From a virus, in IMG/VR virus record IMGVR_UViG_3300025769_000069: DNA of 64,000 nucleotides; one strand, given 5' to 3'. The notes under the pieces were generated by a model. It had not been told where the DNA came from. It worked only from the letters and a program-made list of their open reading frames with translations, and ran no database searches. This document shows, piece after piece, positions 35,466 through 53,012 of the stretch (position 1 is its first letter; every line of letters starts with the position of its first letter). Made by a program: the position numbers and the translations under genes.

Positions 35466-38400
35466 ATGGCAGATAGAATCATAACAACAAAAATTAAAAA
35501 TGTCAAAGTTGGTAGACCAATTAGAAGTACTGTTGGAGCTACTATTACTTTTGGCGGTTTATCAGATACTCTTATCACTCTTCAGGCTCATGATGATACA
35601 ATAATCTGGGATAGCGATTATGCAAGATGGGTAAACGTACCTTCTCTTACTCTTATAGATTCTGCTGTTTCTAATAATAGTACACTACAGTCATCTATTA
35701 GAGAGTTGATTAGTGGTTCTGGCGATGTCCAATATAATTCTTCTACTGGTGTAATTTCTTTAACAACAACTCAATCTAATTTTGATTCAAACTTTAATGT
35801 TGCTATAGATGCCGCAGCTCTAGATGGTGTTGGACTTGCATATGATTCCGGAACTAGAGCTCTTTCAATTGACAGCGCGGAATTAGCATCATACTATAGA
35901 CAAGATATTAGATCTTATTTTTCAGCTGATGGTGATTTATCTTATAATGCCACAACAGGTGAATTTAGTTTTGATGTTGAGAATGTCTATACTCAAGCTA
36001 ATTTCGACTCAGACTTTAACACAACTCTAGATAATGCTGCCATTGATGGTGTTGGTCTTACATACGATGCTGAAAACAATAAATTAAGTATTGACTCAGC
36101 TGAACTTTCACAATATTATAGTACAAATGATATTACTGAAGGTTCCAATAATTTATATTACACAACAGCTCGTTCTGACTCAGATTTTGATGTAAGATTA
36201 GCAACTAAAACCACTAGTGATGTTTCTGAAGGAACTAATTTATATTATACAACAACTAGATTTGATTCTGATTTTGCTGCTATATTTGATTCTAATTTCA
36301 ATATAGCATTAGATGGTGCGGCCCTAAATGGTAATGGATTAGATTATAATGATTTTGACAATACTCTATCCATTGCTGATACGCTAGTTGAAGCAGGCAA
36401 TTATGGTGGAGTTACAACATCATTAGATCTCCGCATTTTGTCAACTGGACAAATTGATTCAGCAGTGGCTAGACCTATCGCTGTTGTTCAAGCATTTACC
36501 TTTAGTGACTCATCTAGAGGGCAATTTACAATAAATACCCCTGCAGGCGACTTCACTGCTACTATGGGTGAGTATGTTACTGATGAAGCAAGAGCAGCTC
36601 TAGTTGCTGGTACTGGTGTAACTTATGACAGCGCTAATGGAATTATTTCAATTGGCCAAGCTGTTGCAACATCAAGTAATGTTCAGTTTAATAACTTAAC
36701 ACTTGATGGTGATCTTACTGTTAATGGCACAACAACCACTATTAATTCTACGACAATAAGTGTAAATGATAAGAATATCGTTCTTGCTGATAGCGCTGTA
36801 GACTCAGCTGCAACAGATGGAGCTGGTATTACTGTTGCAACTTCCGGAGCATCAATTACATACGATCATACAAATGCTACATGGGATTTGAATAGGCCTC
36901 TTGGAAGAGATATTAATGTTCTATCAGAGCATTCTACAGATGATGTATCTGAGGGATCTAATCTATATTATACAACTGCTAGAGCAAATACAGATTTTGA
37001 TACCAGACTTGCAACTAAAACAACTGGTGATCTAACCGAAGGTTCTAATCTTTATTATACTAGATCTAGATTTGATAGTGACCTTGCTTCTGATCCATCA
37101 GTATCGTCAATTAGAACTTATTTCTCTACAACTGGCGATTTAAGCTATGATAATTCAACTGGTGTCTTTAGTTTTAACGTTGAAGATGCTTATACTCAAG
37201 AAAACTTTGAGTCAGACTTTACTCAAGCAGTAGACAGCATATCAACTAATTTAATACCAGGAGCTGATATTACATATGATCTTGGTAGTTCAAGTCGTAG
37301 ATGGAGAGATTTATACTTAAGCGGTAGTTCAATTAATCTTGGTAATTTAGTTATCACAGATAGTTCTGGAATTTTTGCTGTAAAAGATAGTGCTGGCTCT
37401 GTTGTACAAATTGACCTTGCAACTAATACCACTAATGATTTAGCTGAAGGATCAACTAATTTATACTATACAACTGCTAGATTTGATTCTGATTTTGGTG
37501 ATAATACAACAAGTGATCTAACCGAAGGTTCTAATCTTTATTATACAGATGATCGTGTTAATACCTTTTTAGGAAGTGGGAGTGCAACAACATTAACAAC
37601 AACTGGCAACGTTACCGTTGGTGGCGATTTAACTGTTAATGGCACAACAACCACTATTAATTCTACTACGTTATCGGTTAATGATAAGAACATAGTTCTA
37701 GCTGATAGCGCTGCAGATTCTTCAGCTGCTAATGGTGCTGGTATTACTGTAGCTGGAGCTAATGCTACAATCTTATATGATCATGCAAATGCTACATGGG
37801 ATTTAAATAGACCTCTTGGAAGAGATATTAACGTTCTTTCTGAACATAGCACTACAGATCTAAGCGAAGGTTCTAATCTTTATTATACTAGAGCAAGATT
37901 TGATTCTGCATTAGGAGATACTACATCAACTTCTACTATTAGAGGATATTTCTCAGCTGGTGGAGACTTATCATATAATTCTTCTACTGGTGAATTTAGT
38001 TTTGATGTTGAAAATGTTTATACAAAAGCCAACTTCGATTCTGATTTCAACTATGCTCTAGACAGTGCTGCTTTAGGCGGCACAGGGTTAACATATACAG
38101 CTAGTACCAATACATTAAGCATAACTAATACTGGTGTAGATTCAGGCGTATATGGTTCGGCGTCTTTAGTTCCTGTTCTTACTATTAATGCTCAAGGTCA
38201 AATTGATTCAGCTGGAACAGTTTCAGTTGCTGGAGTATCATCAGTTACTTTTGATAGCGCTAATTATAACTACACAATCTCTACAGCTGATGGTGGAAGT
38301 TACTTAAAGAACATTCATACCAGACCTACTCTATCCAATATTGCTGGCACTTATGGCTCAGCTTCAGCAGTTCCTATTGTAAAAGTAGATCAATTTGGTC

Positions 38401-41400
38401 ACGTGGATTCTATTAGCACGGTATCTGTTGCTGGTGTAACTAATTTTGCATATGATTCAGCTGAAGGTAGACTTACAATTAGTACAGCAGATGGTGGATC
38501 TTATCCTACTGTAGTTACTCTAGATCCATTCACCACTACCAATTTAAGTGAAGGTTCGAACCTTTACTATACAACTGCTAGATTTGATAGCGACTTTGGT
38601 GATAATACCACCTCAGATCTTACAGAAGGTTCTAATCTTTATTATACAACTGCACGAGCAGATTCAGATGCTAAGGCAGCAATTTCTGTAACAGATGCTG
38701 GTGGTGATGGTTCATTAACATATAATTCAGGAGTAATAACCTATACAGGTCCATCTGCTTCAGAAGTTAGAGCTCATTTTACAGCTGGAACTGGTGTTTC
38801 TATTTCAAGTGGGGAAGTTTCAATTGGGCAACCTGTTGCAACCACTTCAGATGTTACCTTTGCAAAAATTACAGGTGACTCTGCTAACCTTGATAATATT
38901 AAATTTACAACCTTATCAACACCCCCATCAAGTACATTTGGTACAATGTATTATGACTCTGATGAGCAGAAAGGCCCATCTATTACTCTTCGGACTTTAG
39001 AAAACACTGCACCAGGTGTTACTCTTAATGTAGGCCAAGAGATATTATTATATGTGCATAACTTAACAGGTGCACAAGTCAATAATGGTGATGTAGTTTA
39101 TATTTCAGGCACAGCACATGGTAAACATCCTCAGATATCTTTAGCAAAAGCTGATGCATCTTCTACTGCACAACCAACCGGTGTTGCAACAATGGATATT
39201 CCAGATGGAGCACATGGTTGGGTTACAAGATATGGTATGGTGCGAGATCTTGATACTTCTGCTTATACTGCTGGAGATGTTCTATATCTTTCAAAAGATT
39301 CTGATGGTAAGTTAACAAATACATCAATCACTGTTGATGAAGGGTATCCTGTTCACATAGCAAGAGTTATGACTGCTGATGCAAGCGCAGGTATGATACT
39401 TGTTGATCCATTCTCAGAACATTTTGAATATCTAAGAGTTCAAGATAGAGTGAAAATAGATGGATCACTACAAGCTGATTCAGCTGCTCTTGGACAAATT
39501 GAATTTTCTACTAGCTGGGCTGATAGCCATATTGGATTCACAGAAGGTGCTCTTTGGTATGATCCGTATCATAAAAATTTAAATTATTATACGGACTTCG
39601 ATCATCCAATTGAAATTGGTATGCAAGTTATCGAAAGAGTTTATAACGAAACAGGATCGACAATCAATAAAGGTTCACCTCTTTACTATTCTGGTAATCG
39701 TACCGATATTGCAGGGCAAGAATCGCCTACTGTTGCTCTAGCAAATGCAACATCTTCTACAAAGTATAATGTACAAGGTTTGGCGGCTGAGGATATACCA
39801 AACAATTCATACGGACAGATCGTAGTTGCTGGTGTAATTGATGGTTTTGACACTTCATCATTAAATGCAGGTGAAAATTTCTTTGTTGGTTTAACAGATG
39901 GTGCTGTTCAAAATGCGCCTCCTAGTTATCCAAACTATCCTATGTGTCTAGGTTGGGTGATAATTTCAGATCCAAGTAATGGTAAAGTAATTATAAACCA
40001 ACAAAACCATTCTGTTAATAGCTTTAGGGTTCAAGGTGACACCCATATTAGTTCAAATCTTATTGTTGATGGTAACTTTACGGTTAACGGAACCCAGACA
40101 ATTGCTTCTACAGAAAATGTTAATATTGGTGGTAATATACAATATTTGAACGCTGGTAATACTATTGGTGAAGATAATACAGTATTCGTTGGTACAGGTT
40201 TAGACGACGCATTTTATGCTGGACATTATAGTGGAGATTCATCAAGTAAATCATTCTTTGTAAAAATTGATGGTACAGGCACACCAGATACATTTGAATG
40301 GGGATTTGATAGCTCAGTAGGTACAGAGGCAACAGGTGTTGCGATTACTGGAGCTGAACAAACTTTAGCAGCTGGTATTTCAATTGATTTTGGTGCGACA
40401 ACTGGTCACACGAGTGGAGATAAATGGACTGGTACAGCCAGTGCACTTAATACTGACACTGGCTTATTCTCTAATAAAAATGAAGGTGATGCTGGGAACG
40501 GTTATACACATATCGGTTTGTATTGGGATGCGTCTGAAGATGAGTGGACTTTTGTAGGACAATATGAGTCAGAACCAACGGCACCTATTGATAGATCAGC
40601 ACCCACTTTCCAATATGGCGATGTTAGAGGTAAAGATTTTTATGGTACAACATTTAATGGTGCACTTTCAGGTAATGCAACGACAGCTACAAGATTACAA
40701 ACCGCTAGAAACTTTAGTCTAACAGGTGACATTACTGCAAGTGCAGTATCATTCGATGGTACAGGTAACATACAACTTACCACTGCCTATAATCCTAATT
40801 CAATTGTAAATGGCGATATTAGTCCAACTGCAGCCATTGTAGATACTAAACTGGCTACGATTAGTACTGCTGGTAAAGTACAAAATGGCGCAACAACAGC
40901 AACAAGTGCAAATACAGCTTCTGCTATCGTAGCTCGTGATGCATCTGGTAACTTTAGTGCAGGTACAATTACTGCTGACTTTGATAGATCTGCAAATACA
41001 ACGGTCGCAGCTGGTACATATGGTTCGGCTTCATTAGTCCCAGTCTTAACAATTGATGCTAGTGGATTTATTGATTCTGCCGGCACAGTATCTGTTGCTG
41101 GTGTTTCTAGCACTACTTGGGATTCTGACACTGCAATATTTACCATTAATACAGCAGATGGCGGATCATATGAAACTAGAACATTAATTAATTCTAATCT
41201 TGTTAATCATGATAATACAACAGGCTTTGTGGCTGATGAGCATATTGCTCACTCCGGAGTAACAATTACTGCTGGTACAGGTTTAACTGGTGGTGGTACA
41301 ATAGCTGCTAGCAGAACACTGAATGTTGTTGGTGGTAACGGTATTATTGCTAACGCTAACGATATTCAAATCGACTCTGCTAATGTTAGAGGAATGTTTA

Positions 41401-42041
41401 GTGGTTCAGCTGGCGTAAACTATAACTCATCTACTGGTGCATTTGATGTAGATGAAGCTAACGTAATACATAATAACTTATCAGGCTTTGTAGCTGATGA
41501 GCATATTGCTCACAGTGGTGTATCAATAACAGCCGGTAACGGTCTAACTGGTGGTGGTACAATAGCTGCTAGCAGAACAATTAATGTTGGAGCTGGTACT
41601 GGTGTTACTGTTAATGCTAATGATATTGCGATTGGACAAGATGTTGCTACTTCAGCATCACCTACGTTTGCTGGTGGTACATATACTAGCAATGTTACAT
41701 TCCAAGGTAATATACAATTAGATGAATTTGTAATTAATTCTCAAACTACTACTACCGCAACAGTTTCTCAAACTGCAGTTGCTACATTCTCTGCAACAAC
41801 ATATGGTTCAGCAGAGGCAGTAGTTACAGCAAAAGATGGATCGAATAGACATATAACTAAATTCTTAATAGTACATAATGGAACAAGTGCTTCTCATTCA
41901 GAATATGGTACAGTCTTAACAAATACAAGTTTAGCTACATATGATGTAGATGTAAGTGGAGGAAATGTAAGAATACTAGCAACACCAGCGTCATCAAATA
42001 GCACGGTGTTCAATGTTTCTCTTACATTAATTGATGCATAA
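35466..42041 (+). CDS. Giant repeat-rich tail fibre (2191 aa)
   Basis: About 10 EGSxNLYYT repeats, YGSAS and AGTGLTGGGTI repeats, duplicated blocks, C-terminal HNGT...EYG domain. Confidence 0.8.
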   Translation: MADRIITTKIKNVKVGRPIRSTVGATITFGGLSDTLITLQAHDDTIIWDSDYARWVNVPSLTLIDSAVSNNSTLQSSIRELISGSGDVQYNSSTGVISLTTTQSNFDSNFNVAIDAAALDGVGLAYDSGTRALSIDSAELASYYRQDIRSYFSADGDLSYNATTGEFSFDVENVYTQANFDSDFNTTLDNAAIDGVGLTYDAENNKLSIDSAELSQYYSTNDITEGSNNLYYTTARSDSDFDVRLATKTTSDVSEGTNLYYTTTRFDSDFAAIFDSNFNIALDGAALNGNGLDYNDFDNTLSIADTLVEAGNYGGVTTSLDLRILSTGQIDSAVARPIAVVQAFTFSDSSRGQFTINTPAGDFTATMGEYVTDEARAALVAGTGVTYDSANGIISIGQAVATSSNVQFNNLTLDGDLTVNGTTTTINSTTISVNDKNIVLADSAVDSAATDGAGITVATSGASITYDHTNATWDLNRPLGRDINVLSEHSTDDVSEGSNLYYTTARANTDFDTRLATKTTGDLTEGSNLYYTRSRFDSDLASDPSVSSIRTYFSTTGDLSYDNSTGVFSFNVEDAYTQENFESDFTQAVDSISTNLIPGADITYDLGSSSRRWRDLYLSGSSINLGNLVITDSSGIFAVKDSAGSVVQIDLATNTTNDLAEGSTNLYYTTARFDSDFGDNTTSDLTEGSNLYYTDDRVNTFLGSGSATTLTTTGNVTVGGDLTVNGTTTTINSTTLSVNDKNIVLADSAADSSAANGAGITVAGANATILYDHANATWDLNRPLGRDINVLSEHSTTDLSEGSNLYYTRARFDSALGDTTSTSTIRGYFSAGGDLSYNSSTGEFSFDVENVYTKANFDSDFNYALDSAALGGTGLTYTASTNTLSITNTGVDSGVYGSASLVPVLTINAQGQIDSAGTVSVAGVSSVTFDSANYNYTISTADGGSYLKNIHTRPTLSNIAGTYGSASAVPIVKVDQFGHVDSISTVSVAGVTNFAYDSAEGRLTISTADGGSYPTVVTLDPFTTTNLSEGSNLYYTTARFDSDFGDNTTSDLTEGSNLYYTTARADSDAKAAISVTDAGGDGSLTYNSGVITYTGPSASEVRAHFTAGTGVSISSGEVSIGQPVATTSDVTFAKITGDSANLDNIKFTTLSTPPSSTFGTMYYDSDEQKGPSITLRTLENTAPGVTLNVGQEILLYVHNLTGAQVNNGDVVYISGTAHGKHPQISLAKADASSTAQPTGVATMDIPDGAHGWVTRYGMVRDLDTSAYTAGDVLYLSKDSDGKLTNTSITVDEGYPVHIARVMTADASAGMILVDPFSEHFEYLRVQDRVKIDGSLQADSAALGQIEFSTSWADSHIGFTEGALWYDPYHKNLNYYTDFDHPIEIGMQVIERVYNETGSTINKGSPLYYSGNRTDIAGQESPTVALANATSSTKYNVQGLAAEDIPNNSYGQIVVAGVIDGFDTSSLNAGENFFVGLTDGAVQNAPPSYPNYPMCLGWVIISDPSNGKVIINQQNHSVNSFRVQGDTHISSNLIVDGNFTVNGTQTIASTENVNIGGNIQYLNAGNTIGEDNTVFVGTGLDDAFYAGHYSGDSSSKSFFVKIDGTGTPDTFEWGFDSSVGTEATGVAITGAEQTLAAGISIDFGATTGHTSGDKWTGTASALNTDTGLFSNKNEGDAGNGYTHIGLYWDASEDEWTFVGQYESEPTAPIDRSAPTFQYGDVRGKDFYGTTFNGALSGNATTATRLQTARNFSLTGDITASAVSFDGTGNIQLTTAYNPNSIVNGDISPTAAIVDTKLATISTAGKVQNGATTATSANTASAIVARDASGNFSAGTITADFDRSANTTVAAGTYGSASLVPVLTIDASGFIDSAGTVSVAGVSSTTWDSDTAIFTINTADGGSYETRTLINSNLVNHDNTTGFVADEHIAHSGVTITAGTGLTGGGTIAASRTLNVVGGNGIIANANDIQIDSANVRGMFSGSAGVNYNSSTGAFDVDEANVIHNNLSGFVADEHIAHSGVSITAGNGLTGGGTIAASRTINVGAGTGVTVNANDIAIGQDVATSASPTFAGGTYTSNVTFQGNIQLDEFVINSQTTTTATVSQTAVATFSATTYGSAEAVVTAKDGSNRHITKFLIVHNGTSASHSEYGTVLTNTSLATYDVDVSGGNVRILATPASSNSTVFNVSLTLIDA

Positions 42042-42074: not shown

Positions 42075-44297
42075 ATGGTAAAAAAACCATTTATAATAAA
42101 AGATCAGGAACTGAGAGTCGGTAACAATAGAGTTATTGACTCAGATGGGCAATGGGTTGGATCAACAACTGGAATCTCTGGTTATCAAGGAGATACTGGA
42201 GTTAGTGGTGCTCAGGGTAGGCAGGGTGTAGCTGGTATTCTTGGAGTTGCAGGCTTTCAAGGACCGGGTGGAGCAACTGGTGCTGGGGGTGCTCAAGGTG
42301 TCCAAGGTTCTGCTGGATCAGCTGGTCCTCAAGGTTTCCAAGGTCGACAAGGTTTTCAAGGTGTTCAAGGATATACTGGTGTTCAAGGTCCACAGGGACC
42401 TCAAGGATCTACTGGTGCAACTGGTAGACAAGGTGTCGGTGGTGTTCAAGGTGCTGCTGGCCGGCAGGGTGTCCAAGGTGCACAAGGTCCTCAGGGACCA
42501 CAGGGACCACAAGGTTCAAGAGGGCCACAGGGTGGCGCTGGACCCACTGGAGCAACAGGTAGAACTGGTGTTGCCGGTGTTCAAGGTTATCAGGGTGTTC
42601 AAGGCTACCAGGGAACTCAGGGTGCTCGTGGACCACAGGGACCGCAAGGTCCAGTAGGACCAACTGGTGCGACTGGTCGACAAGGTGCTCAGGGTGCTGC
42701 TGGTCGTCAGGGTGTTCAAGGATACCAGGGAACACAGGGTGCTAGAGGACCACAAGGACCGCAGGGTCCGGTAGGACCAACTGGAGCATCTGGTCGTCAA
42801 GGTGGAGTTCCAGGTGCCGGCACAGTAACTTATCAAATATATTCAACTCATGGTGGCAGCGGTAACACTAGTCAATACTCAAATTTTCCTACAAACTCTA
42901 CAAACTTTGATGCGTATTTCAATACAAACTATTCAAACACAACTTTGCACAGCTCTGGTTCAGCTGCAATAACTACAATTTTAAATTGGACAAATTATAC
43001 TACTTTGACTGGTGCTGGAATATCAGTACCAAATTCTGGTAATTATTTTTCTGTAATAGTTTCAGGTACGTTCAGACCTCTTGAAACTGGTACTTACACG
43101 TTTACTGCAGAATCTGATGATGCTATTGACTTGTTTATTAATAATACTAATGTGGCTAGTTTTTATGGCGGAAGAGGTACTCCAGCTTTAGGAACAACTA
43201 CAGGAACCATTTCTTTAACCGCTGGTACTACATATACGTTTAGAGCTCGTACTCAAGAGTATGGTGGTGGCGAAGGTATGAGAGTCTTTTGGAAAAAGCC
43301 ATCAGAATCTGCTGGTTCAACATGGTATCAACACACTGCTGAACTTGGTGTTGCCGGCACAAGAGGACCTCTTGGTTATCAAGGAACTCAGGGTGCTCGT
43401 GGACCACAGGGACCTCAAGGACCGGTAGGACCAAATGGTGCTACTGGCCGACAAGGTGTCGGAGGCGCGCAAGGTCGTCAAGGTGTTCAAGGCTACCAGG
43501 GAACTCAGGGACCACAGGGATCAAGAGGACCACAGGGTTCTAGAGGACCACAGGGAGCAACTGGTAGACAAGGTCATCAGGGTGTTCAGGGTTATCAGGG
43601 TGTTCAGGGTTATCAGGGACCAAGAGGACCGCAAGGCGCTAGAGGACCACAGGGAGCAAGAGGTCCACAGGGTCCTACAGGACCAGCAGGAGCAACTGGT
43701 GTTGGTGGTGCAACTGGTCCTGGTGGACCAGCATCTTACACAGGATATACTGGTAGATCTGGTGTTCAAGGTAAGGCTGGTGCTCAGGGTTATCAGGGTG
43801 CCCAGGGATCTAGAGGACCACAAGGTCCACAAGGAACTTCATCTGCAAGTGGTGGATACAATCCTGCTACTGTTACACATAGCTATCTTTCAGTAAATAT
43901 TGGAGCAGCTTCTCCTACTGGAACAATTCAAGCAACTGGATCTATTACTGCTGGATATTCTGACAAAAGATTAAAACATGAAATTGAAATTATTAAAGAC
44001 GCAGTTGATAAATTAAAGTCTATTACTGGAATTTATTTTAGAACAAATGAAACCGGAAAGAAATTAGGTTTGGATACTGGAAGAAGACAAATTGGCTTGA
44101 TTGCTCAACAAATAGAAGCAATCGCTCCAGAATTAGTAACCAAAGCAGCATTAGCTGAAGAATTAGATAATGGAAATAATTATCTTACTGTAAAGTATGA
44201 TCGAGTAGTTGCTCTATTGTTACAAGCTATAAAAGAACAACAAGCACAAATAAATATATTGAAGCAAAAAGTAGAGCAAAGAGAAGTAAATGGCTAA
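42075..44297 (+). CDS. Collagen-like fibre chain 1 with inserted PA14-like domain and S74 intramolecular chaperone
   Basis: Gly-X-Y at aa 33-242 and 425-589; insert with [27 protein letters not shown]; GYSDKRLK...GLIAQ...V.Y. Confidence 0.88.
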
Positions 44298-45963
44298 GAA
44301 ACCCTTTATAGTTCAAGAAGGAGTTACTGTTAATGGCACAGATGTCATTGACAATACCGGAAAGTGGGTTGCTAGCGCTGTTAATATTAGAGGTCCTCAA
44401 GGACCACAGGGTAGACAAGGTGCTCAAGGACCACAGGGTAGATCTGGATTAGATGGATCTCAAGGTCCACAGGGTGCAACCGGAGTTGCTGGGTTCCAAG
44501 GTCGCCAAGGTGCTCAAGGTGCAGTTGGTGCTCAAGGGATACAAGGTCCTCAGGGACCACAAGGACCACAAGGTGCTCGTGGGCCACAAGGTTCTGCTGG
44601 ACCAACAGGTGCAACTGGAGTTGCAGGTGTTCAAGGTTATCAGGGTGTTCAAGGATATACTGGTGTACAAGGTGCACAAGGTGTTCAAGGTTCTGCTGGA
44701 CCAACTGGTGCTGGAGGTAGAACTGGTGTTGGTGGTGTAACAGGTCCAACTAGTGGCGTAACAGGGTTTCAAGGTTATCAGGGTCGACAAGGTACACAAG
44801 GACCGCAAGGTGCTAGAGGACCGCAAGGACCAACCGGTGTTGGCGGGGTCGGTGGATCCACCGGTGCTTCAAGTAGTGTTGCTGGGTATCAAGGTAGACA
44901 GGGTGCAGTTGGTGCTCAAGGAACACAAGGTCCAAGAGGTCCTCAAGGTCCAACTGGTGTTGGAGGAGTAGGCGGGTCCACCGGTGCTTCAAGTAGTGTA
45001 GCAGGTTATCAAGGCAGACAAGGATCAAATGGTGCTCAAGGCGGGACAGGACCACGGGGACCACAAGGTCCAACCGGTGTTGGAGGAGTAGGCGGATCCA
45101 CCGGTGCTTCAAGTAGTGTTGCTGGTGTTCAAGGCTACCAAGGTGTTCAAGGTTATCAGGGAACTCAAGGTGCTAGAGGACCACAGGGATCGACCGGTGC
45201 AACTGGTGTTGGTGGTGTAACAGGTGTTGGTGGTGTAACAGGTACTCAAGGTGTTCAAGGTCCTCAAGGTTCGCGTGGACCACAGGGTTCTAGAGGACCA
45301 CAAGGTTCAACAGGTGTTACTGGTGTTGGTGGTGTTAGTGGTGCAGCAAGTGCTACTACTGGTCCGACAGGTAGAACTGGTTTCCAAGGCGTTCAGGGAT
45401 ATGCTGGTTATCAAGGTGCTAGAGGACCGCAAGGACCACAGGGTGCTCAAGGTTATCAGGGAACTCAAGGTGCTAGAGGACCACAAGGAGGAGGAGGACC
45501 AACTGGTGTGGCTGGTGCTCAGGGTGCTGCTGGAGCAGTTACTAATACTGCTCAAGTATTAGCATTTGGCGTTGGAACTCCAGCTGGACCAACTGGAGAT
45601 CTAAGAGCATCTGGTAACATTGTATCATATTATTCAGATATTAGATTAAAAGATAAAATTGAATATATTAAAGATCCAAATGTAAAAATAAAGAATTTAA
45701 ATGGTGTATTTTATACTCAAAATGAATTTGCTGAAAAATATGGATACCATGATTATAGAACACAAGTTGGATTAATTGCTCAAGAAGTAAATAAAATATT
45801 ACCTGAAGTTATTGAAGATGCTCCTTTTAACTTAAGAGACAATACAGACGATAAATATTTAACAGTGCGTTATGAACACATTGTTCCTTTATTAGTTGAA
45901 GCTATAAAAGAACAACAAGAAGAAATAGAAGAACTATCTAGGGTATTGTTAAATGGCGACTAA
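44290..45963 (+). CDS. Collagen-like fibre chain 2 with S74 intramolecular chaperone
   Basis: Gly-X-Y at aa 35-417; YYSDIRLK...GLIAQEV...[16 protein letters not shown]. Confidence 0.9.
44800..45140 (+). repeat. Three 120-bp tandem repeats in collagen chain 2
   Basis: TCCACCGGTGCTTCAAGTAGTGT recurs at a 120-bp period. Confidence 0.85.
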
Positions 45964-47635
45964 AAAGTTTGACATAAAAAATGGATTAACTATCAGAGGT
46001 AGTTCAAATATCCCAGTAATTGATAGTGATGGTAATTGGATAGGTCCAACAACTTTAGTTGGTACTGGTCCGCAGGGTGCTCAGGGTGCTGCCGGTCCGC
46101 AAGGTGTTCAAGGAACAAATGGTACACAAGGACCATCTGGTCCGCAGGGTGTTCAAGGTCCTCAAGGTCCTCAGGGACCAGCTGGAAGACAGGGTACAAA
46201 TCCAACAGGAGCAACTGGTGTTGGTGGTAGAACTGGTGTTGGTGGTGTAACAGGTGCAACTAGTGGTGTAGCTGGTTTCCAAGGCCGACAAGGTACACAA
46301 GGACCGCAAGGTGCTAGAGGACCACAAGGTCCACAAGGTGTTCAGGGAGCAGCTGGAGTATCAAATGCAACTGGTTTCCAAGGTCGACAAGGTTATCAAG
46401 GTGTTCAAGGATATACTGGTGTTCAAGGACCACAAGGTCCACAGGGACCTCAAGGATCTACTGGTGCTACTGGCCGACAAGGTGTTGGTGGTCGACAAGG
46501 TGTTCAGGGTGTTCAGGGATATACTGGTTATCAGGGTCCTCAAGGACCGCAAGGACCACAGGGAGCAGCTGGTCGTCAGGGATCAACTGGTGCAACGGGT
46601 GTAGCTGGTAGACAAGGTCATCAGGGTGTTCAGGGATATACTGGTTATCAAGGTACTCAGGGTCCTCAAGGACCACAGGGTCCAGCAGGAGCACAGGGTG
46701 CAGTTGGTGCTCAAGGTGGTTCTGGTCGTCAAGGTCGTCAAGGTGTTCAGGGATATACTGGTTATCAGGGTGCGCAAGGTGCTAGAGGACCACAAGGTGC
46801 TAGAGGACCACAAGGTCCAACCGGTAGAATTGGTGTAACTGGTGTGGCTGGTCGACAAGGTTATCAAGGTGTTCAGGGTTATCAAGGTGTTCAGGGTTAT
46901 CAAGGACCAGCAGGAGCAACTGGTAGAGGTGGTGTTGCTGGCCGTCAAGGTGTTACTGGCCGTCAAGGTGTTCAGGGTTATCAAGGCGTTCAGGGTTATG
47001 GCGGAGCATCTGGTTATCAAGGTACACAAGGACCACAGGGTCCTAGAGGACCGCAAGGGCCGCAAGGAGCAGCGACAGGGACAGGTCCTCAAGGTTCGCG
47101 TGGACCACAGGGTCCAACTGGAGTAACTGGTCCTTCAGGTGTTGCTGGTAGACAAGGTGCTCAAGGTTATCAGGGATACGCCGGCGTAGCTGGAACAACA
47201 ACTCAAGTAGATAAACTATTAGTTGGATCTCCAGCACCAGCATCAACTTCAATGGGAGTTGGAGATATTAGAGCAGCAAGTTATATTACAGCAGGTTACT
47301 CTGATATTAGATTAAAAAATGTAAAAGGGCCAATAGATAATCCTATAAAAAGAATTAGCAAATTAAATGGTTATTATTATTCTCCAAATGAATTAGCAAA
47401 AAATATTGCAAATGACTTTTCTGGACGGAAAATTGGCCTGATTGCTCAAGAATTAGAACAGGCTTTACCTGAAGTACTTAGAGGTGCTCCGTTTGATATA
47501 AATAAGCATGGACATAGTATTTCTGGCGAGAAGTATTTAACAGTGGACTATCCAAGAGTAATTCCTTTATTAATTGAAGCACTAAAGGAACAAAAAAATC
47601 AAATAGATGATTTAAAATCTAGAATAGGAAAATAA
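45953..47635 (+). CDS. Collagen-like fibre chain 3 with S74 intramolecular chaperone
   Basis: Gly-X-Y at aa 39-416; GYSDIRLK...GLIAQEL...VDYPRVIPLLIEALKE. Confidence 0.9.
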   Translation: MATKKFDIKNGLTIRGSSNIPVIDSDGNWIGPTTLVGTGPQGAQGAAGPQGVQGTNGTQGPSGPQGVQGPQGPQGPAGRQGTNPTGATGVGGRTGVGGVTGATSGVAGFQGRQGTQGPQGARGPQGPQGVQGAAGVSNATGFQGRQGYQGVQGYTGVQGPQGPQGPQGSTGATGRQGVGGRQGVQGVQGYTGYQGPQGPQGPQGAAGRQGSTGATGVAGRQGHQGVQGYTGYQGTQGPQGPQGPAGAQGAVGAQGGSGRQGRQGVQGYTGYQGAQGARGPQGARGPQGPTGRIGVTGVAGRQGYQGVQGYQGVQGYQGPAGATGRGGVAGRQGVTGRQGVQGYQGVQGYGGASGYQGTQGPQGPRGPQGPQGAATGTGPQGSRGPQGPTGVTGPSGVAGRQGAQGYQGYAGVAGTTTQVDKLLVGSPAPASTSMGVGDIRAASYITAGYSDIRLKNVKGPIDNPIKRISKLNGYYYSPNELAKNIANDFSGRKIGLIAQELEQALPEVLRGAPFDINKHGHSISGEKYLTVDYPRVIPLLIEALKEQKNQIDDLKSRIGK

Positions 47636-47639
47636 AGAA

Positions 47640-47894
47640 ATGGCAATAGATCTTTCTACACAAGATATAGAAACACATTCTAAAGAAGGTTTCTTCAATG
47701 AAAACGAAACTGCAGTAGACGCTTCAGTAAATGCTTCTGGATGGTGGAAATTAACTATGGTTGATGGAACATTTACAGCAGCAGCAGCTGCTACTGAAGC
47801 TGAAGATGGTGCAACTGTAAATGAAGCAGCGCAATTAGTATATAATGTGGATGAAACAACTATTCATATGTATGTTAATTTTAACGTAGAATAA
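47640..47894 (+). CDS. Small acidic hypothetical protein
   Basis: Operon context between the collagens and the enzymes. Confidence 0.65.
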   Translation: MAIDLSTQDIETHSKEGFFNENETAVDASVNASGWWKLTMVDGTFTAAAAATEAEDGATVNEAAQLVYNVDETTIHMYVNFNVE

Positions 47895-47916: not shown

Positions 47917-48495
47917 ATGGCATGGCAAGGTGATTGGTGTTATTTTGAATCGTATTTAAATAAACAAGACTGTGAAGAAATAATCGCTCAAGCAAAACTA
48001 TTACCATCACAAGATGCAGTAGTTGGTTTGGGTGAAGATGCTCATCTTACGGAATATCGTAAAAGTAAAGTATCATTTATTCAAGCAGGTGATTGGAGAT
48101 TTCAAAAATTATTTGATGCTTTATGGAAAACACAAATTCAAGCAAATAAAGATTTCTTTAATATCCACGTTAATAGACTTGATTTTGTACAATTTGCAGA
48201 ATATGATGCATCTATTCAAGGCGAATATAAAGAGCATGTAGATACTTTTTGGATGAATGGCGATCCAACACATCATAGAAAAATATCATGTGTATTGCAA
48301 TTATCGGATCCAAATGACTATGATGGTGGTGATTTAGAAATTGTAGATTCTTCTAATCCACCAGATCCAAAAGATTACAGAGCTCAAGGAACTTTTATCT
48401 ATTTTCCTTCAGTCTTAAAACACAAAGCAAATCCAGTTACGAGAGGAACTAGATATAGTATTGCTGCGTGGTTTGAAGGCCCTAAATGGATTTAG
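47917..48495 (+). CDS. 2OG-Fe(II) dioxygenase (prolyl-hydroxylase-like)
   Basis: HVD...RKIS..LQLS...YDGGDL...FPS..KH.A.PVTRGTRYS. Confidence 0.9.
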   Translation: MAWQGDWCYFESYLNKQDCEEIIAQAKLLPSQDAVVGLGEDAHLTEYRKSKVSFIQAGDWRFQKLFDALWKTQIQANKDFFNIHVNRLDFVQFAEYDASIQGEYKEHVDTFWMNGDPTHHRKISCVLQLSDPNDYDGGDLEIVDSSNPPDPKDYRAQGTFIYFPSVLKHKANPVTRGTRYSIAAWFEGPKWI

Positions 48496-49220
48496 CGCAA
48501 GCAAAAGAGTATGATGTTCCTTTTAAATACTTCGTGATAGACAATTTTTTAAAAGCTGATTTAGCACATACTTTATCAAAACAGTTCCCTTCACATTCTT
48601 CTAAAAAATGGTTTGCTTATGACAATCCATTAGAAAGAAAAAAGGCTATTCAAAACTGGGGATCTTTTCCACCGGAAACTTATCAGTTATTTTTATCATT
48701 ATGTTGCGAAAAGTTTACTGATAAATTAAGAAAGCTAACCGGGGATGCATGTCTTAAGCCTGATTATGGATTACATGGTGCTGGTTGGCATATGAGCAAA
48801 AGTGGAGATCATTTAAATATTCATCAAGATTATTCTATTCATCCACTAGCTAATATGCAAAGGAAATGGAACATTATAATCTATCTTACTCCAAACTGGA
48901 AAAAAGAATGGGGTGGAAATTTAGAATTTTGGAGCCATAATGAAGAATTAAATCAAGCAAAGAAAAAAGAAGTATCTATTGATTGTGTATTTAATAGAGC
49001 TGTTTTGTTTGATACCACTCAAAATTCATGGCATGGATTTCCAGAAACAATTAAATGTCCTCAAGGAATATACCGAAAAAGCATTGCAATGTATTATTTG
49101 TCGCCAATACAAGAGAGTGCTGTTGATAGACCTAGAGCATTATATAGTCCACGAGAAGATCAAATAAATAACGATAAGATCCTTGAATTTATTAAGAAAC
49201 GTGCTGAGAAAACATCATGA
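48486..49220 (+). CDS. 2OG-Fe(II) dioxygenase
   Basis: GAGWH, IHQD, YLTPNW...WGGNLE.W, FNRAVLF, SWHG, RKSIAMYY. Confidence 0.9.
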   Translation: MDLAQAKEYDVPFKYFVIDNFLKADLAHTLSKQFPSHSSKKWFAYDNPLERKKAIQNWGSFPPETYQLFLSLCCEKFTDKLRKLTGDACLKPDYGLHGAGWHMSKSGDHLNIHQDYSIHPLANMQRKWNIIIYLTPNWKKEWGGNLEFWSHNEELNQAKKKEVSIDCVFNRAVLFDTTQNSWHGFPETIKCPQGIYRKSIAMYYLSPIQESAVDRPRALYSPREDQINNDKILEFIKKRAEKTS

Positions 49221-50944
49221 ATAAAGAATGTAAAATTGTTATGGTAGCCATGTTTAAGAACGAAGCACATGTTCTTCGAAACATGCTTGATTCTGTAGTT
49301 GGATATATTGATTATTATGTAATTCAAGATAATGGATCTACAGATGGTTCTCCTGATATTGTAAATGAATGGGCTGCTGAGAATAATATTCCAGGTGTTC
49401 TTTATAAAGTTGAAGAAGGCTGGAAAGGATTTGGCTGGAATAGAGATCATTTAATTCGTTATTGCCAAAATGAAGTCGATCATGGTTGTGATTGGATTCT
49501 TAAAATGGATTGCGATGAAACATTAGAAGTTTATGATGATTTTGATTGGTCCGTATTTAATGATAAAACAGTTCATGGATTTAATATTCCAGCAATTTCT
49601 GGTTCAGCTGTATATTATAGAACATGGTTATGGAATGCAAATATGCAATGGGCGTTTAACCACGATCCATGCCATGAAACCATTTATTGTTTAGATCCAG
49701 AAATTGACCATGAATATAATACTTATCCGCTTCAAATAGGGTTTAATCAAATTGGATCAAATTCTGGAATGTCTTGGTCAGTTCCAACTAAATTTATTTC
49801 AGATTCTCTTGTACTTGAAGAAAAACTTATTCGTGAGCAAAATCTTTTAGAAAATATGTATCACTTTTGGTATATTGGTAAAAGCTATAGAGATGCAATG
49901 GAATCATCTGCATTTCCATTAGAAAAAAGACATGCTGATGAATATGCTAGACGATCAATTTGGTATTTAAATGAATATATTACTAAAGTTTTTAAAGATA
50001 AAAATGGTAATGTAGGTGTGGATGAGATGTGCTATATGGCTGGCATCATGGCAGCTGAAGCATATATTTTTATGGGTAAAAATGAAGAAGCTATTACTAC
50101 ATTAAAACCATTAGAAAGATTTGCTCCTGGAAGAAACGATCATCTATGGATGCTAGTAAAATTATATAAAGAAACAAAACAATATGATAAAATGCTAGAA
50201 ACAACAACAGTGATGATGGATCCGGATCGCAAGTTTCCATTTCCTCAATACTGCAATTTTATTGATCGGCAGCATTATGTTGATGGAACCGGGGATGTAC
50301 AAAGGTTACATGGTGAAGCTTTACAATTAGTAGAATGGCATTCAACTGAAGAAAAAGAATCTAATAATATATTTTCAATTAATAAGATTCCAACAAAAAG
50401 AGTTTGGGTTGTAGATAATTTTTATGAAAATCCTTATGAAATTAGAGATTGGGCTCTTAATAATCTAACCTTTGAAGACGGATCTGAGTGGTACAAAGGA
50501 TATAGATCTTTAGAAAAATATAGACCAATAGAACTTAAACATAAATTTGAAAATATTATTGGAGAGAAAATTGTAGATTGGGAAGGTGGTATGAATGGAG
50601 TTTTCCAAGTAACTCGTGCTTCTGACCCACAAGTTTGGCATTTTGATGAACAGCGTTGGGCTGGTATGATTTACTTATCACCTGATGCACCATATGAGAG
50701 CGGAACTAGGCTTCATATTTCAAAGATAAATAATGCTAGACATAGTATAGAAGATGCTGATATTATCGACGGCGCATTTAATGGAAACTTTTTTGATTCA
50801 ACTAAGTTTCATAATGTTGATATAGTCGGCAACATTTTTAATCGCCTTGCTATCTTCGATGCAAGACATATCCATTCTGCTGGAGAGTATTTTGGATCTG
50901 ATTTAGAAGATGGTAGACTTACACACTTATTCTTTTTTGACTAA
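49217..50944 (+). CDS. GT2 glycosyltransferase, TPR-like region and C-terminal 2OG-dioxygenase-like domain
   Basis: KNEA, DNGSTDGS, GFGWNR, DCDE (DxD); helical middle; VVDNFYENP...HFD...YLSP...FNRL...HSA...RLT. Confidence 0.82.
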   Translation: MNKECKIVMVAMFKNEAHVLRNMLDSVVGYIDYYVIQDNGSTDGSPDIVNEWAAENNIPGVLYKVEEGWKGFGWNRDHLIRYCQNEVDHGCDWILKMDCDETLEVYDDFDWSVFNDKTVHGFNIPAISGSAVYYRTWLWNANMQWAFNHDPCHETIYCLDPEIDHEYNTYPLQIGFNQIGSNSGMSWSVPTKFISDSLVLEEKLIREQNLLENMYHFWYIGKSYRDAMESSAFPLEKRHADEYARRSIWYLNEYITKVFKDKNGNVGVDEMCYMAGIMAAEAYIFMGKNEEAITTLKPLERFAPGRNDHLWMLVKLYKETKQYDKMLETTTVMMDPDRKFPFPQYCNFIDRQHYVDGTGDVQRLHGEALQLVEWHSTEEKESNNIFSINKIPTKRVWVVDNFYENPYEIRDWALNNLTFEDGSEWYKGYRSLEKYRPIELKHKFENIIGEKIVDWEGGMNGVFQVTRASDPQVWHFDEQRWAGMIYLSPDAPYESGTRLHISKINNARHSIEDADIIDGAFNGNFFDSTKFHNVDIVGNIFNRLAIFDARHIHSAGEYFGSDLEDGRLTHLFFFD

Positions 50945-50946
50945 AC

Positions 50947-51678
50947 ATGATAAACAATCAAATCCTTTCAGTACTAGACACATCGATTGCCTCTTATAGA
51001 GAAGCATACCCCTTTCCTCATACCATATTAGATAATTTCTTAGATCCTTGGATCCTAAAACAAGCTATACCTGAAATAGAAAACTATCAACACTGGAGAC
51101 AAGATAACACAGAATGGGTAGAAGACTATCAAATTTTAAAACAATACGCTCCTGATGTGGTAGCAGTTCCAGATGATGTGGAAATCTTAGGTAAGTATGC
51201 TCCAAAAACAAAACTTATTTTAGATTATATGTATTCTGAAACAGTAATAAACTTTCTTCAAGATTTAACTGGTATTCAAGGATTATTACCCGATGAAAAC
51301 TGGTTAGGCGCAGGAATACATAAAATTTCAAGAGGTGGGAAGTTAGGTATCCATGCAGATTTTAATGTAAATTTTGTTAACAACCTTCATCGTAGAATTA
51401 ATGTTTTGATTTATTTAAATGAAGATTGGAATCCAGAATGGAATGGACACCTTGAATTATGGGATAAAGATTTATCAAAATGTTGTGTTAAAGTAGAACC
51501 TATTTTTAATAGAGCAGTAATATTTAATATCACAGACGACGCATTTCATGGACATCCAGAGCCTCTCCAGTGTCCTGAAACTGTATCCAGATATTCACTT
51601 GCATTATACTATTATACGCAAGATAGACCAGAAGAAGAAAAATCAGATCCACATGCGGTTATTTGGTACGACACGTAA
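50947..51678 (+). CDS. 2OG-Fe(II) dioxygenase (paralogue of 48486)
   Basis: PFPH, GAGIH, IHADFN, RRIN..IYLN, FNRAVIF, FHGHP, RYSLALYYY. Confidence 0.9.
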   Translation: MINNQILSVLDTSIASYREAYPFPHTILDNFLDPWILKQAIPEIENYQHWRQDNTEWVEDYQILKQYAPDVVAVPDDVEILGKYAPKTKLILDYMYSETVINFLQDLTGIQGLLPDENWLGAGIHKISRGGKLGIHADFNVNFVNNLHRRINVLIYLNEDWNPEWNGHLELWDKDLSKCCVKVEPIFNRAVIFNITDDAFHGHPEPLQCPETVSRYSLALYYYTQDRPEEEKSDPHAVIWYDT

Positions 51679-51749: not shown

Positions 51750-53012
51750 ATGAAATTTAGTATTATTACACCTGAACATGATCCAGGAAATATTCCTTTT
51801 CTTTTAGAATTATTTGATTGTGTTCTTAATCAAACATACAAAGATTGGGAATGGATTTTATATTTAAATAATAAAATTCAAGTTGAGCATATTCCGGATC
51901 AAATTAAAAATCATCCTCAAGTAATTGTATTTAGGACTCATGATACTGATACAAATATTGGTGCAATCAAAAACGCAGCATTTAGTATTGGCACTGGCGA
52001 TGTTTTAGTAGAAGTAGATCATGATGATTTAATTACTCCAGATTGTTTGGAAGAATTAAAAAAAGCATATGAATCTGATCCAGAAGTTGGATTCGTATAC
52101 AGTGATAATGCTGTATTACAAATGGAAGGCGAGTTTATTCCATATGATTCATCCGGCGGCTGGACATGGCGTGAATTTGAATGGAAAGGCCAGACTTTGC
52201 CAGCAATGCATAGTTTTGAACCAACCGCTCAAGCTTTAAGCTACATATGGTATGCTCCAGACCATGTTCGTTCTTGGAGAAAAGAAGTCTATATTGAAGT
52301 TGGTGGACATAATCCCGAGCTTTCTATTTGCGATGACCATGAACTTATGATGCGCACATATCTCATTACTAAAATGAAACGTGTACCAAAAGTCCTTTAC
52401 ATTTACAGAATTACTGGTAATAATACATGGTTAGAGCGTAATGAAGCAATTCAAGTAAAAACTGTAGATCTATTTAGAGAATATGGCCAAAGGCTAGCAG
52501 AAAGAGATGCTCAGCATCGAGGATTATTATGTGTAGATATTGGTGGAGGTTTAAATCCATATCCTGGTTATCATACTGTAGATATTCGTGAAACAGCAGA
52601 TACAGTAGCTGATTTAAATAATGGAATCCCATTACCTGATAATAGTGTTGGTGTGTTAAATGCAAGTCATATATTAGAACACTTAGAAGATAAAACAAAA
52701 ATCATGGGTGAAATTCATAGAGTATTAGCTCATGGTGGTTGGGCCTTTATTGAAGTTCCAAGTACAGATGGACGAGGAGCATTTCAAGATCCAACACATG
52801 TAAGTTATTGGAATGAAAATAGCTTCTTATATTATACAGATAAATACTTAGGAGATTTTATAGATAATGATTCAATTCGTTTTCAAGAATTTCGTAAAGA
52901 AACATATTATCCAAATGAATGGATGCAAAATTTACAAGTGTTGGTCACAACCGCATGGCTAACAGCAGTAAAACAAGATGAACCGCGATACCCGCATGTT
53001 TTGAATATTTAA
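51750..53012 (+). CDS. GT2 glycosyltransferase fused to class I SAM methyltransferase-like domain
   Basis: FSIITP, QTYKDWEW, EVDHDD, DDHEL; then DIGGG, SHILEH, EIHRVLAHGG, DPTH. Confidence 0.85.
   Translation: MKFSIITPEHDPGNIPFLLELFDCVLNQTYKDWEWILYLNNKIQVEHIPDQIKNHPQVIVFRTHDTDTNIGAIKNAAFSIGTGDVLVEVDHDDLITPDCLEELKKAYESDPEVGFVYSDNAVLQMEGEFIPYDSSGGWTWREFEWKGQTLPAMHSFEPTAQALSYIWYAPDHVRSWRKEVYIEVGGHNPELSICDDHELMMRTYLITKMKRVPKVLYIYRITGNNTWLERNEAIQVKTVDLFREYGQRLAERDAQHRGLLCVDIGGGLNPYPGYHTVDIRETADTVADLNNGIPLPDNSVGVLNASHILEHLEDKTKIMGEIHRVLAHGGWAFIEVPSTDGRGAFQDPTHVSYWNENSFLYYTDKYLGDFIDNDSIRFQEFRKETYYPNEWMQNLQVLVTTAWLTAVKQDEPRYPHVLNI

Follow-up and report, generated by a model that had tools for sequence, protein, structure and literature searches.

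A conserved three-gene set of length-matched collagen-like chains with S74 domains in T4-like phages, a candidate heterotrimeric fibre

The stretch of viral DNA analyzed here (IMG/VR record IMGVR_UViG_3300025769_000069; 64,000 nucleotides, hereafter the window) contains three overlapping open reading frames (ORFs) on the plus strand at 42075-47635, which encode collagen-like chains ending in a Peptidase_S74 domain (chains 1, 2, and 3; Table 1). Matching of the window proteins to the Pfam and PHROG families identified Collagen (PF01391; 131-166 bits at a cut-off of 27.2) and a C-terminal Peptidase_S74 domain (PF13884; 46.1, 39.3, and 35.3 bits, respectively, cut-off 22) in each of the three chains. 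In addition, chain 1 carries a PA14 domain (PF07691) inserted into its collagen region, with a score of 44 bits for the whole chain and 46.7 bits (E 3.7e-12) for the insert alone, the cut-off being 24. The best PHROG matches of the chains are collagen-like tail fibre families (PHROGs 1806, 5073, and 6320), and no further collagen-like ORF was found in the 64-kb window. The genes for chains 1 and 2 overlap by 8 nucleotides, and those for chains 2 and 3 by 11 nucleotides.

All three chains share one architecture, in which a short N-terminal head of 32-38 amino acids (consensus MAxxxxFxVKNGLTVGxTxVIxSxGxWIG) is followed by the Gly-X-Y rod, a linker, and the S74 domain. The heads are 45-55% identical in pairwise comparison, and the C-terminal domains are 38-42% identical. 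A profile of the head had no significant match in PDB; the C-terminal profile matched the solved S74 structures 6f45, 7dc3, and 8jov. The cleavage motif YSDxRLK, with the Ser and Lys of S-D-x-x-x-K, is present in each chain and retained in related phages, where its Tyr is variable. It starts 39, 31, and 33 residues after the helix end in chains 1, 2, and 3, so that a common head and a YSDxRLK motif 31-39 residues past the helix, both noted in the preliminary description of this locus, proved correct.

Table 1. Collagen-like chains of the window and features of the adjacent region (ORF, open reading frame; TE, triplet-equivalents; aa, amino acids)
Feature	Coordinates	Strand	Description
Chain 1	42075..44297	+	740 aa; alpha-type S74, N-head type I; 126 TE; head aa 1-32, helix 33-245, PA14 insert 246-424, helix 425-589, linker 590-628, S74 from Ser629
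PA14/GLEYA-like domain	42810..43346	+	179 aa; after triplet 71 of chain 1; Pfam PF07691
Chain 2	44290..45963	+	557 aa; beta-type S74, N-head type II; 126 TE; head aa 1-34, helix 35-417 with five frame-shifting interruptions, linker 418-448, S74 from Ser449
Chain 3	45953..47635	+	560 aa; gamma-type S74, N-head type III; 126 TE; head aa 1-38, helix 39-416, linker 417-449, S74 from Ser450
2OG-Fe(II) oxygenase	47917..48495	+	192 aa; Pfam PF13640; immediately follows gamma in almost all related loci
2OG-Fe(II) oxygenase, stand-alone	48486-49220		downstream of the collagen genes
GT2-oxygenase-like fusion	49217-50944
2OG-Fe(II) oxygenase, stand-alone	50947-51678		downstream of the collagen genes
GT2-methyltransferase	51750-53012
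ORF between chain 3 and oxygenase	47640-47894		84 aa; no Pfam or PHROG family
Protein directly upstream of chain 1	35466-42041		2191 aa; weak match to phrog_697 (large virion structural); no Pfam domain

Rod length was expressed in triplet-equivalents (TE), where an interruption of n residues counts as round(n/3) triplets, that is, a one-residue bulge as 0 and two to four residues as 1. In chain 1, 71 triplets precede the insert, and 43 triplets, SYT, and 11 triplets follow it; this gives 125 perfect triplets and 213+165 = 378 residues, instead of the 210+165 = 375 counted previously. The earlier values of 383 residues with five one-residue stutters for chain 2 and of 378 residues for chain 3 required no change. 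In particular, chain 2 has 122 perfect triplets and five interruptions (S once, SSVA three times, and SATT), each shifting the frame by one residue, and chain 3 has 123 perfect triplets and four interruptions (PT, S, NAT, and TGT). In TE the three rods are of exactly equal length, 126/126/126, and the originally proposed match of helix length among the overlapping genes is thus borne out. Similarly, the conserved Trp of the head and the Ser of YSDxRLK are separated by 423, 423, and 421 residues after subtraction of the insert. Chain 2 contains three private tandem units of 40 amino acids, whose DNA sequences are 75-82% identical. The window rods (42171-47200) and those of one related array, L099, also show a repeat of about 12-13.5 triplets; in both, the aromatic-rich and Pro-rich segments of the repeat are shifted from chain to chain by about one third of the period (R3 0.10-0.26), a shift not generally found in other genomes.

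Relatives were collected from IMG/VR and JGI metagenomes using as queries the neighbouring 2-oxoglutarate (2OG) oxygenase, the C-terminal domains of window chains 1 and 3, and the gamma-type and beta-type C-terminal profiles. Including the window, 13 arrays have all genes complete, and several others are cut. Every complete array encodes exactly three collagen-S74 proteins, the gene never occurs singly in this clade, and 12 of the 13 arrays have 1.8 kb or more of upstream sequence with no fourth collagen-S74 gene. The maximum-likelihood tree of the S74/C-terminal domains is composed of three clades, alpha, beta, and gamma, with one member of each per genome, and thus the triplication predates the whole phage group. 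The gamma clade (support 100/98) always corresponds to the last gene of the array. Among complete arrays no S74 type has been lost or doubled.

Which head is joined to which S74 domain varies between genomes. In L051 (4440-10432) the pairing is I-beta, III-alpha, and II-gamma, as opposed to I-alpha, II-beta, and III-gamma in the window, and both genomes keep full sets of three; the paralogues have thus exchanged ends, apparently inside the rods, with no loss of a type. Loss of chain 2 by fusion, which had been read from the cut contig L001 of the closest relative, was rejected, as the longer contig L051 has three chains with permuted head-S74 linkage. The inserted domain is carried by the alpha chain in the window and in L051 and by the gamma chain in L053; the insert of the latter two genomes (227 amino acids) matched no Pfam family. 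Two of the three chains of L184 (4856-9922) contain PA14/GLEYA inserts, one located after triplet 62 and the other after triplet 73 in rods of about 170 triplets. In all insert-bearing arrays the insertion point lies 62-76 triplets from the N-terminus, independently of rod length.

Two irregular arrays were seen, which may be real variants or assembly faults: in L054 (5934-8366) the third chain is split into two ORFs, and in L069 the chain preceding gamma includes a globular region, its final 313 amino acids being nearly devoid of Gly-X-Y. A homologue search with the gamma C-terminus gave three matches only, the best of which (P0004/L006) lies in an unrelated context. Among the cultured phages of INPHARED none has the triple, and the matches there span the S74 domain only (34-44% identity).

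Comparison of the relatives confirmed that the three-gene set keeps a matched rod length, far beyond chance (Table 2). Across the 13 complete arrays the rods vary from 61 to 203 TE, and the chains of a single genome agree to within 1 TE in eight of them. Four arrays (L178, L186, L189, and L184) were scored once the TE measure was already fixed. For the twelve arrays scored first, the median within-genome difference is 1 TE and the pairwise correlation of chain lengths is 0.989-0.997; the mean difference is 2.4, compared to 31 after shuffling of same-type chains between genomes (permutation p < 5e-5). Thus chain lengths, when checked in related genomes as had been suggested for this locus, co-vary tightly rather than independently. 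Cut arrays with two complete chains gave 143/142, 86/87, 100/99, and 137/135 TE, and in another one a chain of at least 44 TE lies beside one of 45. The change is parallel in close relatives, the beta and gamma chains being 127/126 TE in L009 and 143/142 in L102.

Table 2. Rod lengths in the 13 complete arrays (TE, in gene order)
Array	TE	Remark
Window	126/126/126	chain 1 with PA14 insert
L009	127/127/126
L099	128/128/127
L070	138/138/139
L106	170/170/169
L178	156/155/155
L186	99/99/99
L189	202/202/203
L051	139/135/139	insert in the 135 chain
L053	136/135/132	insert in the 132 chain
L184	170/169/173	PA14 in the first two chains
L104	182/175/181	beta 182, alpha 175, gamma 181; mismatch 7
L008	76/61/63	mismatch 15

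The quantity conserved is TE rather than the number of residues. The gamma chain of L104 (8156-10387) has 26 interruptions, including one extra residue per 19 residues repeated 22 times, and the alpha chain of this genome has none; the beta and gamma chains nevertheless differ by 1 TE, compared with 21 residues. Similarly, the gamma chain of L106 (7518-9542) has 11-12 two-residue interruptions, about one per 35 residues, and the chains of this array are 1 TE but 12 residues apart. The partners of these two gamma chains are almost uninterrupted. In L051, L053, and L184 the chains that bear an insert consistently fall 3-4 TE short of the others.

The reading that we favour, with an even chance of being right in our estimate, is that the three genes encode a natural alpha-beta-gamma heterotrimeric collagen outside animals, in which three diverged S74 domains select and register the strands and then remove themselves, and which would be present clade-wide in aquatic T4-like phages, with PA14-like domains in single strands. 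The tight coupling of the genes would lead to roughly equal translation of the three chains, and one strand from each would enter a single collagen triple helix of about 108 nm (126 triplets x ~0.86 nm). The three unlike C-terminal S74 domains would meet as a pseudo-symmetric heterotrimer, which would nucleate zipper-like folding of the helix toward the N-terminus and then cut itself off at the Ser of YSDxRLK. The three N-terminal heads could form an attachment knob by which the fibre is anchored to the baseplate, or to the fibre apparatus, of a T4-like myovirus, and a domain inserted in one strand, PA14 in this case, would loop out as a mid-shaft binding knob.

Co-assembly is the simplest explanation of three observations taken together, namely that lengths co-vary, that there are always exactly three chains, and that each belongs to one ancient S74 clade. 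Strands of one helix that are tied at both the C-terminal module and the N-terminal head need equality to one triplet, and a match that is better in TE, i.e. in the axial register, than in residue count is what one would expect of a register set by partner strands. The exchange of head types between S74 types with preservation of complete sets (L051 compared to the window) would fit a heterotrimer, and so would the regular shortening of insert-bearing chains by 3-4 TE. Heterotrimeric animal collagens (C1q A/B/C, types VI and IX) are typically recognized by clustered paralogues, chains of equal length, and a C-terminal domain that selects the chains.

Several observations weigh against a heterotrimer. 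The interruptions of different chains are out of register: at a tolerance of 1 TE there are 7 coincidences where 8.9 are expected at random, and widening the tolerance to 3 TE gives 12 where 20.5 are expected. Many interruptions of C1q and type IV collagen occupy corresponding positions in the partner chains. Two of the complete arrays, L104 and L008, are clearly mismatched. The short contig L067 encodes a beta chain followed by a chain of 73 triplets with an alpha head and a gamma S74 domain, which looks like a two-chain hybrid, and in another short contig, L068, the alpha rod has at least 86 triplets against 66 in gamma, a mismatch of at least 20 triplets; both contigs may be real variants or collapsed repeat assemblies. 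The solved S74 structures matched by the C-terminal profile (6f45, 7dc3, and 8jov) are all homotrimers. There are almost no acidic residues in the chains, and therefore charge pairing cannot select or register them. Neither complementarity of Pro-rich and weak segments nor an even stagger of repeat phases between the chains reached significance over all genomes (Fisher p 0.36 and 0.12): the staggered-phase signal was found only in the window (R3 0.20-0.26) and L099 (R3 ~0.10), and the complementary profiles only in L099 and L051. Possible interchain salt bridges in the C-terminal helix, between an invariant Glu of beta and a Lys five residues further on in gamma and alpha of the window, were proposed post hoc and are given no weight.

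The preliminary description explained the conserved length by 1:1:1 co-assembly with one PA14 domain displayed per fibre. The length co-variation, the constant number of three chains, and the presence of one chain per S74 clade support the first part; the out-of-register interruptions and the few mismatched arrays do not. Display of a single PA14 per fibre depends on the heterotrimer being real, and in L184 two of the three chains carry the domain.

It is possible, if rather doubtful, that the genes encode three separate homotrimeric fibres (alpha3, beta3, and gamma3), with the S74 domains serving as orthogonal modules that prevent mis-pairing and with a functional need, for instance joint action of the fibres on one baseplate, equalizing their lengths. 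All solved S74 fibre proteins are homotrimeric, and so are the known prokaryotic collagens (PMC8968730). Chain-specific, out-of-register interruptions would come automatically in separate fibres, one S74 domain of each type per genome is equally expected from three orthogonal homotrimerization modules, and the mismatched arrays L008 and L104 are accommodated. However, separate fibres would be free-ended and flexible, with no evident need for the one-triplet precision seen in eight of 13 arrays over a threefold range of length; we know of no role of such fibres of 50-170 nm that demands equality to one triplet (0.9 nm, or less than 1%). Moreover, TE is meaningless for separate helices and yet it is TE, not the number of residues, that is conserved; the copy number is constant (three genes in 13 of 13 arrays), unlike in typical families of fibre paralogues; and the gamma chain of L104 as a homotrimer would have uninterrupted runs of six triplets only.

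An improbable alternative is promiscuous assembly, in which any mixture of chains trimerizes, equal length lets every mixture fold, and the fibres bear from zero to three PA14 knobs. It accounts for the length lock as well as the strict heterotrimer does, and it is consistent with the conservation, across all three types, of the segment before the cleavage site and of the positions that seem to be hydrophobic in the C-terminal helix. Nevertheless, three ancient clades with a single copy per genome and type-specific invariant residues suggest a separate role for each type, and promiscuity would permit loss or duplication of a type, neither of which was seen in the complete arrays.

The rods could also have been equalized with no functional meaning, by gene conversion between repetitive sequences. 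In L099 (1799-6873) they are 60-75% identical outside Gly and the S74 domains only about 45%, which points to recent gene conversion between the paralogues of this genome, and concerted evolution could equalize length there without selection, which is a further point against the heterotrimer. The rods of L009 and L070 are likewise more similar within a genome than between genomes, and the interruption motifs SS[VI][AT] recur in several chains of a single genome. In the window, the rods are 42-46% identical outside Gly at a background of about 33%, and no DNA stretch of 95-200 nucleotides exceeds 79% identity between the chains, so that, as judged from its sequence, the window is without recent gene conversion. 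Neutral concerted evolution seems very improbable to us, since rods near the background (34-46% identity in the window, L051, and L053) are still matched in length, since the private repeat architectures of L104 gamma, L106 gamma, and window chain 2 reflect homogenization within chains and not between them, and since the frequent indels, by which close relatives come to differ in length, would drive unselected chains apart. We conclude that equal axial length is under selection.

The individual parts of this system are already known, namely collagen-like phage fibres, S74 chaperones, and PA14 domains; the conserved length-locked set of three genes is not described in the literature searched, where no account of a three-gene, length-matched phage collagen was found. 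A pelagimyophage survey mentions only 'triple collagen repeats' among the structural proteins of a host-recognition cluster. Fibres and tailspikes of the S74 type (K1F endosialidase, the long tail fibre distal subunit 6f45, and MYRF, 7dc3) are similar to the window chains in PF13884, the S-D-x-R-L-K motif, and the T4-like fibre module, but the known members are single-gene homotrimers, whereas the window has three ancient paralogous types on length-locked rods. At the corresponding place, a single giant S74 protein is encoded in the T4-like cyanophages Sf-FS3 and S-SSM6a, and several unlike S74 proteins in HTVC008M. With Scl1/2, BclA, and collagen-like minor tail proteins the window chains share long imino-poor Gly-X-Y rods and a globular trimerization domain; these prokaryotic and viral collagens are described as single-gene homotrimers (PMC8968730), and none has been reported as a conserved three-gene length-locked set.

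A further parallel is with C1q and the collagens of types VI and IX, which also have three clustered paralogues, equal collagen regions, and three distinct types of C-terminal domain, the match being kept in evolution. The phage chains differ from them in several respects: they are unrelated in sequence, they have a self-cleaving S74 chaperone instead of gC1q or NC1, they lack charge pairs, and their interruptions are not aligned between chains. To our knowledge, a mixed three-strand collagen fibre has been described so far only in animals. If the proposed assembly is correct, this would be the first heterotrimeric collagen outside animals and the first heterotrimeric S74 fibre, and it would suggest a route from a trimeric to an asymmetric fibre, with one binding domain instead of three and an asymmetric foot toward the virion. 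Registered ABC heterotrimers are a standing difficulty in collagen engineering, and the three small self-removing domains would then provide a ready tool for production of defined heterotrimeric collagens in bacteria. Even with separate homotrimers, a length lock to one triplet over a threefold range would be an unexplained constraint worth study.

The window is the part of a divergent T4-like myovirus genome that encodes the baseplate and fibres; upstream of the collagen genes lie matches to PHROG families of the baseplate hub, the wedge (gp6-like), and tail fibres. Among cultured phages, the closest relatives of this gp6-like protein are found in Phage C48C1 (38% identity) and, at 30% identity, in Pelagibacter phage HTVC008M. 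Over 42-48 kb the G+C content climbs from about 0.35 to 0.45-0.48, owing to the Gly and Pro codons. The 192-residue oxygenase that follows the gamma chain is a candidate collagen prolyl hydroxylase and not a part of the fibre, and in cyanophage Sf-FS3 the giant S74 fibre is likewise followed by a gene annotated as prolyl 4-hydroxylase-like. Together with the oxygenases and GT2 proteins further downstream (Table 1), it may constitute a cassette for collagen modification.

A small ORF separates chain 3 from the oxygenase (Table 1); an ORF of equal length occupies this position in the closest relative (L001, 3035-3289), and L008 has none. Finally, the giant protein encoded directly upstream of chain 1 may, by its position, correspond to the VrlC-like giant protein located ahead of the host-recognition cluster of pelagimyophages (PMC7029224).

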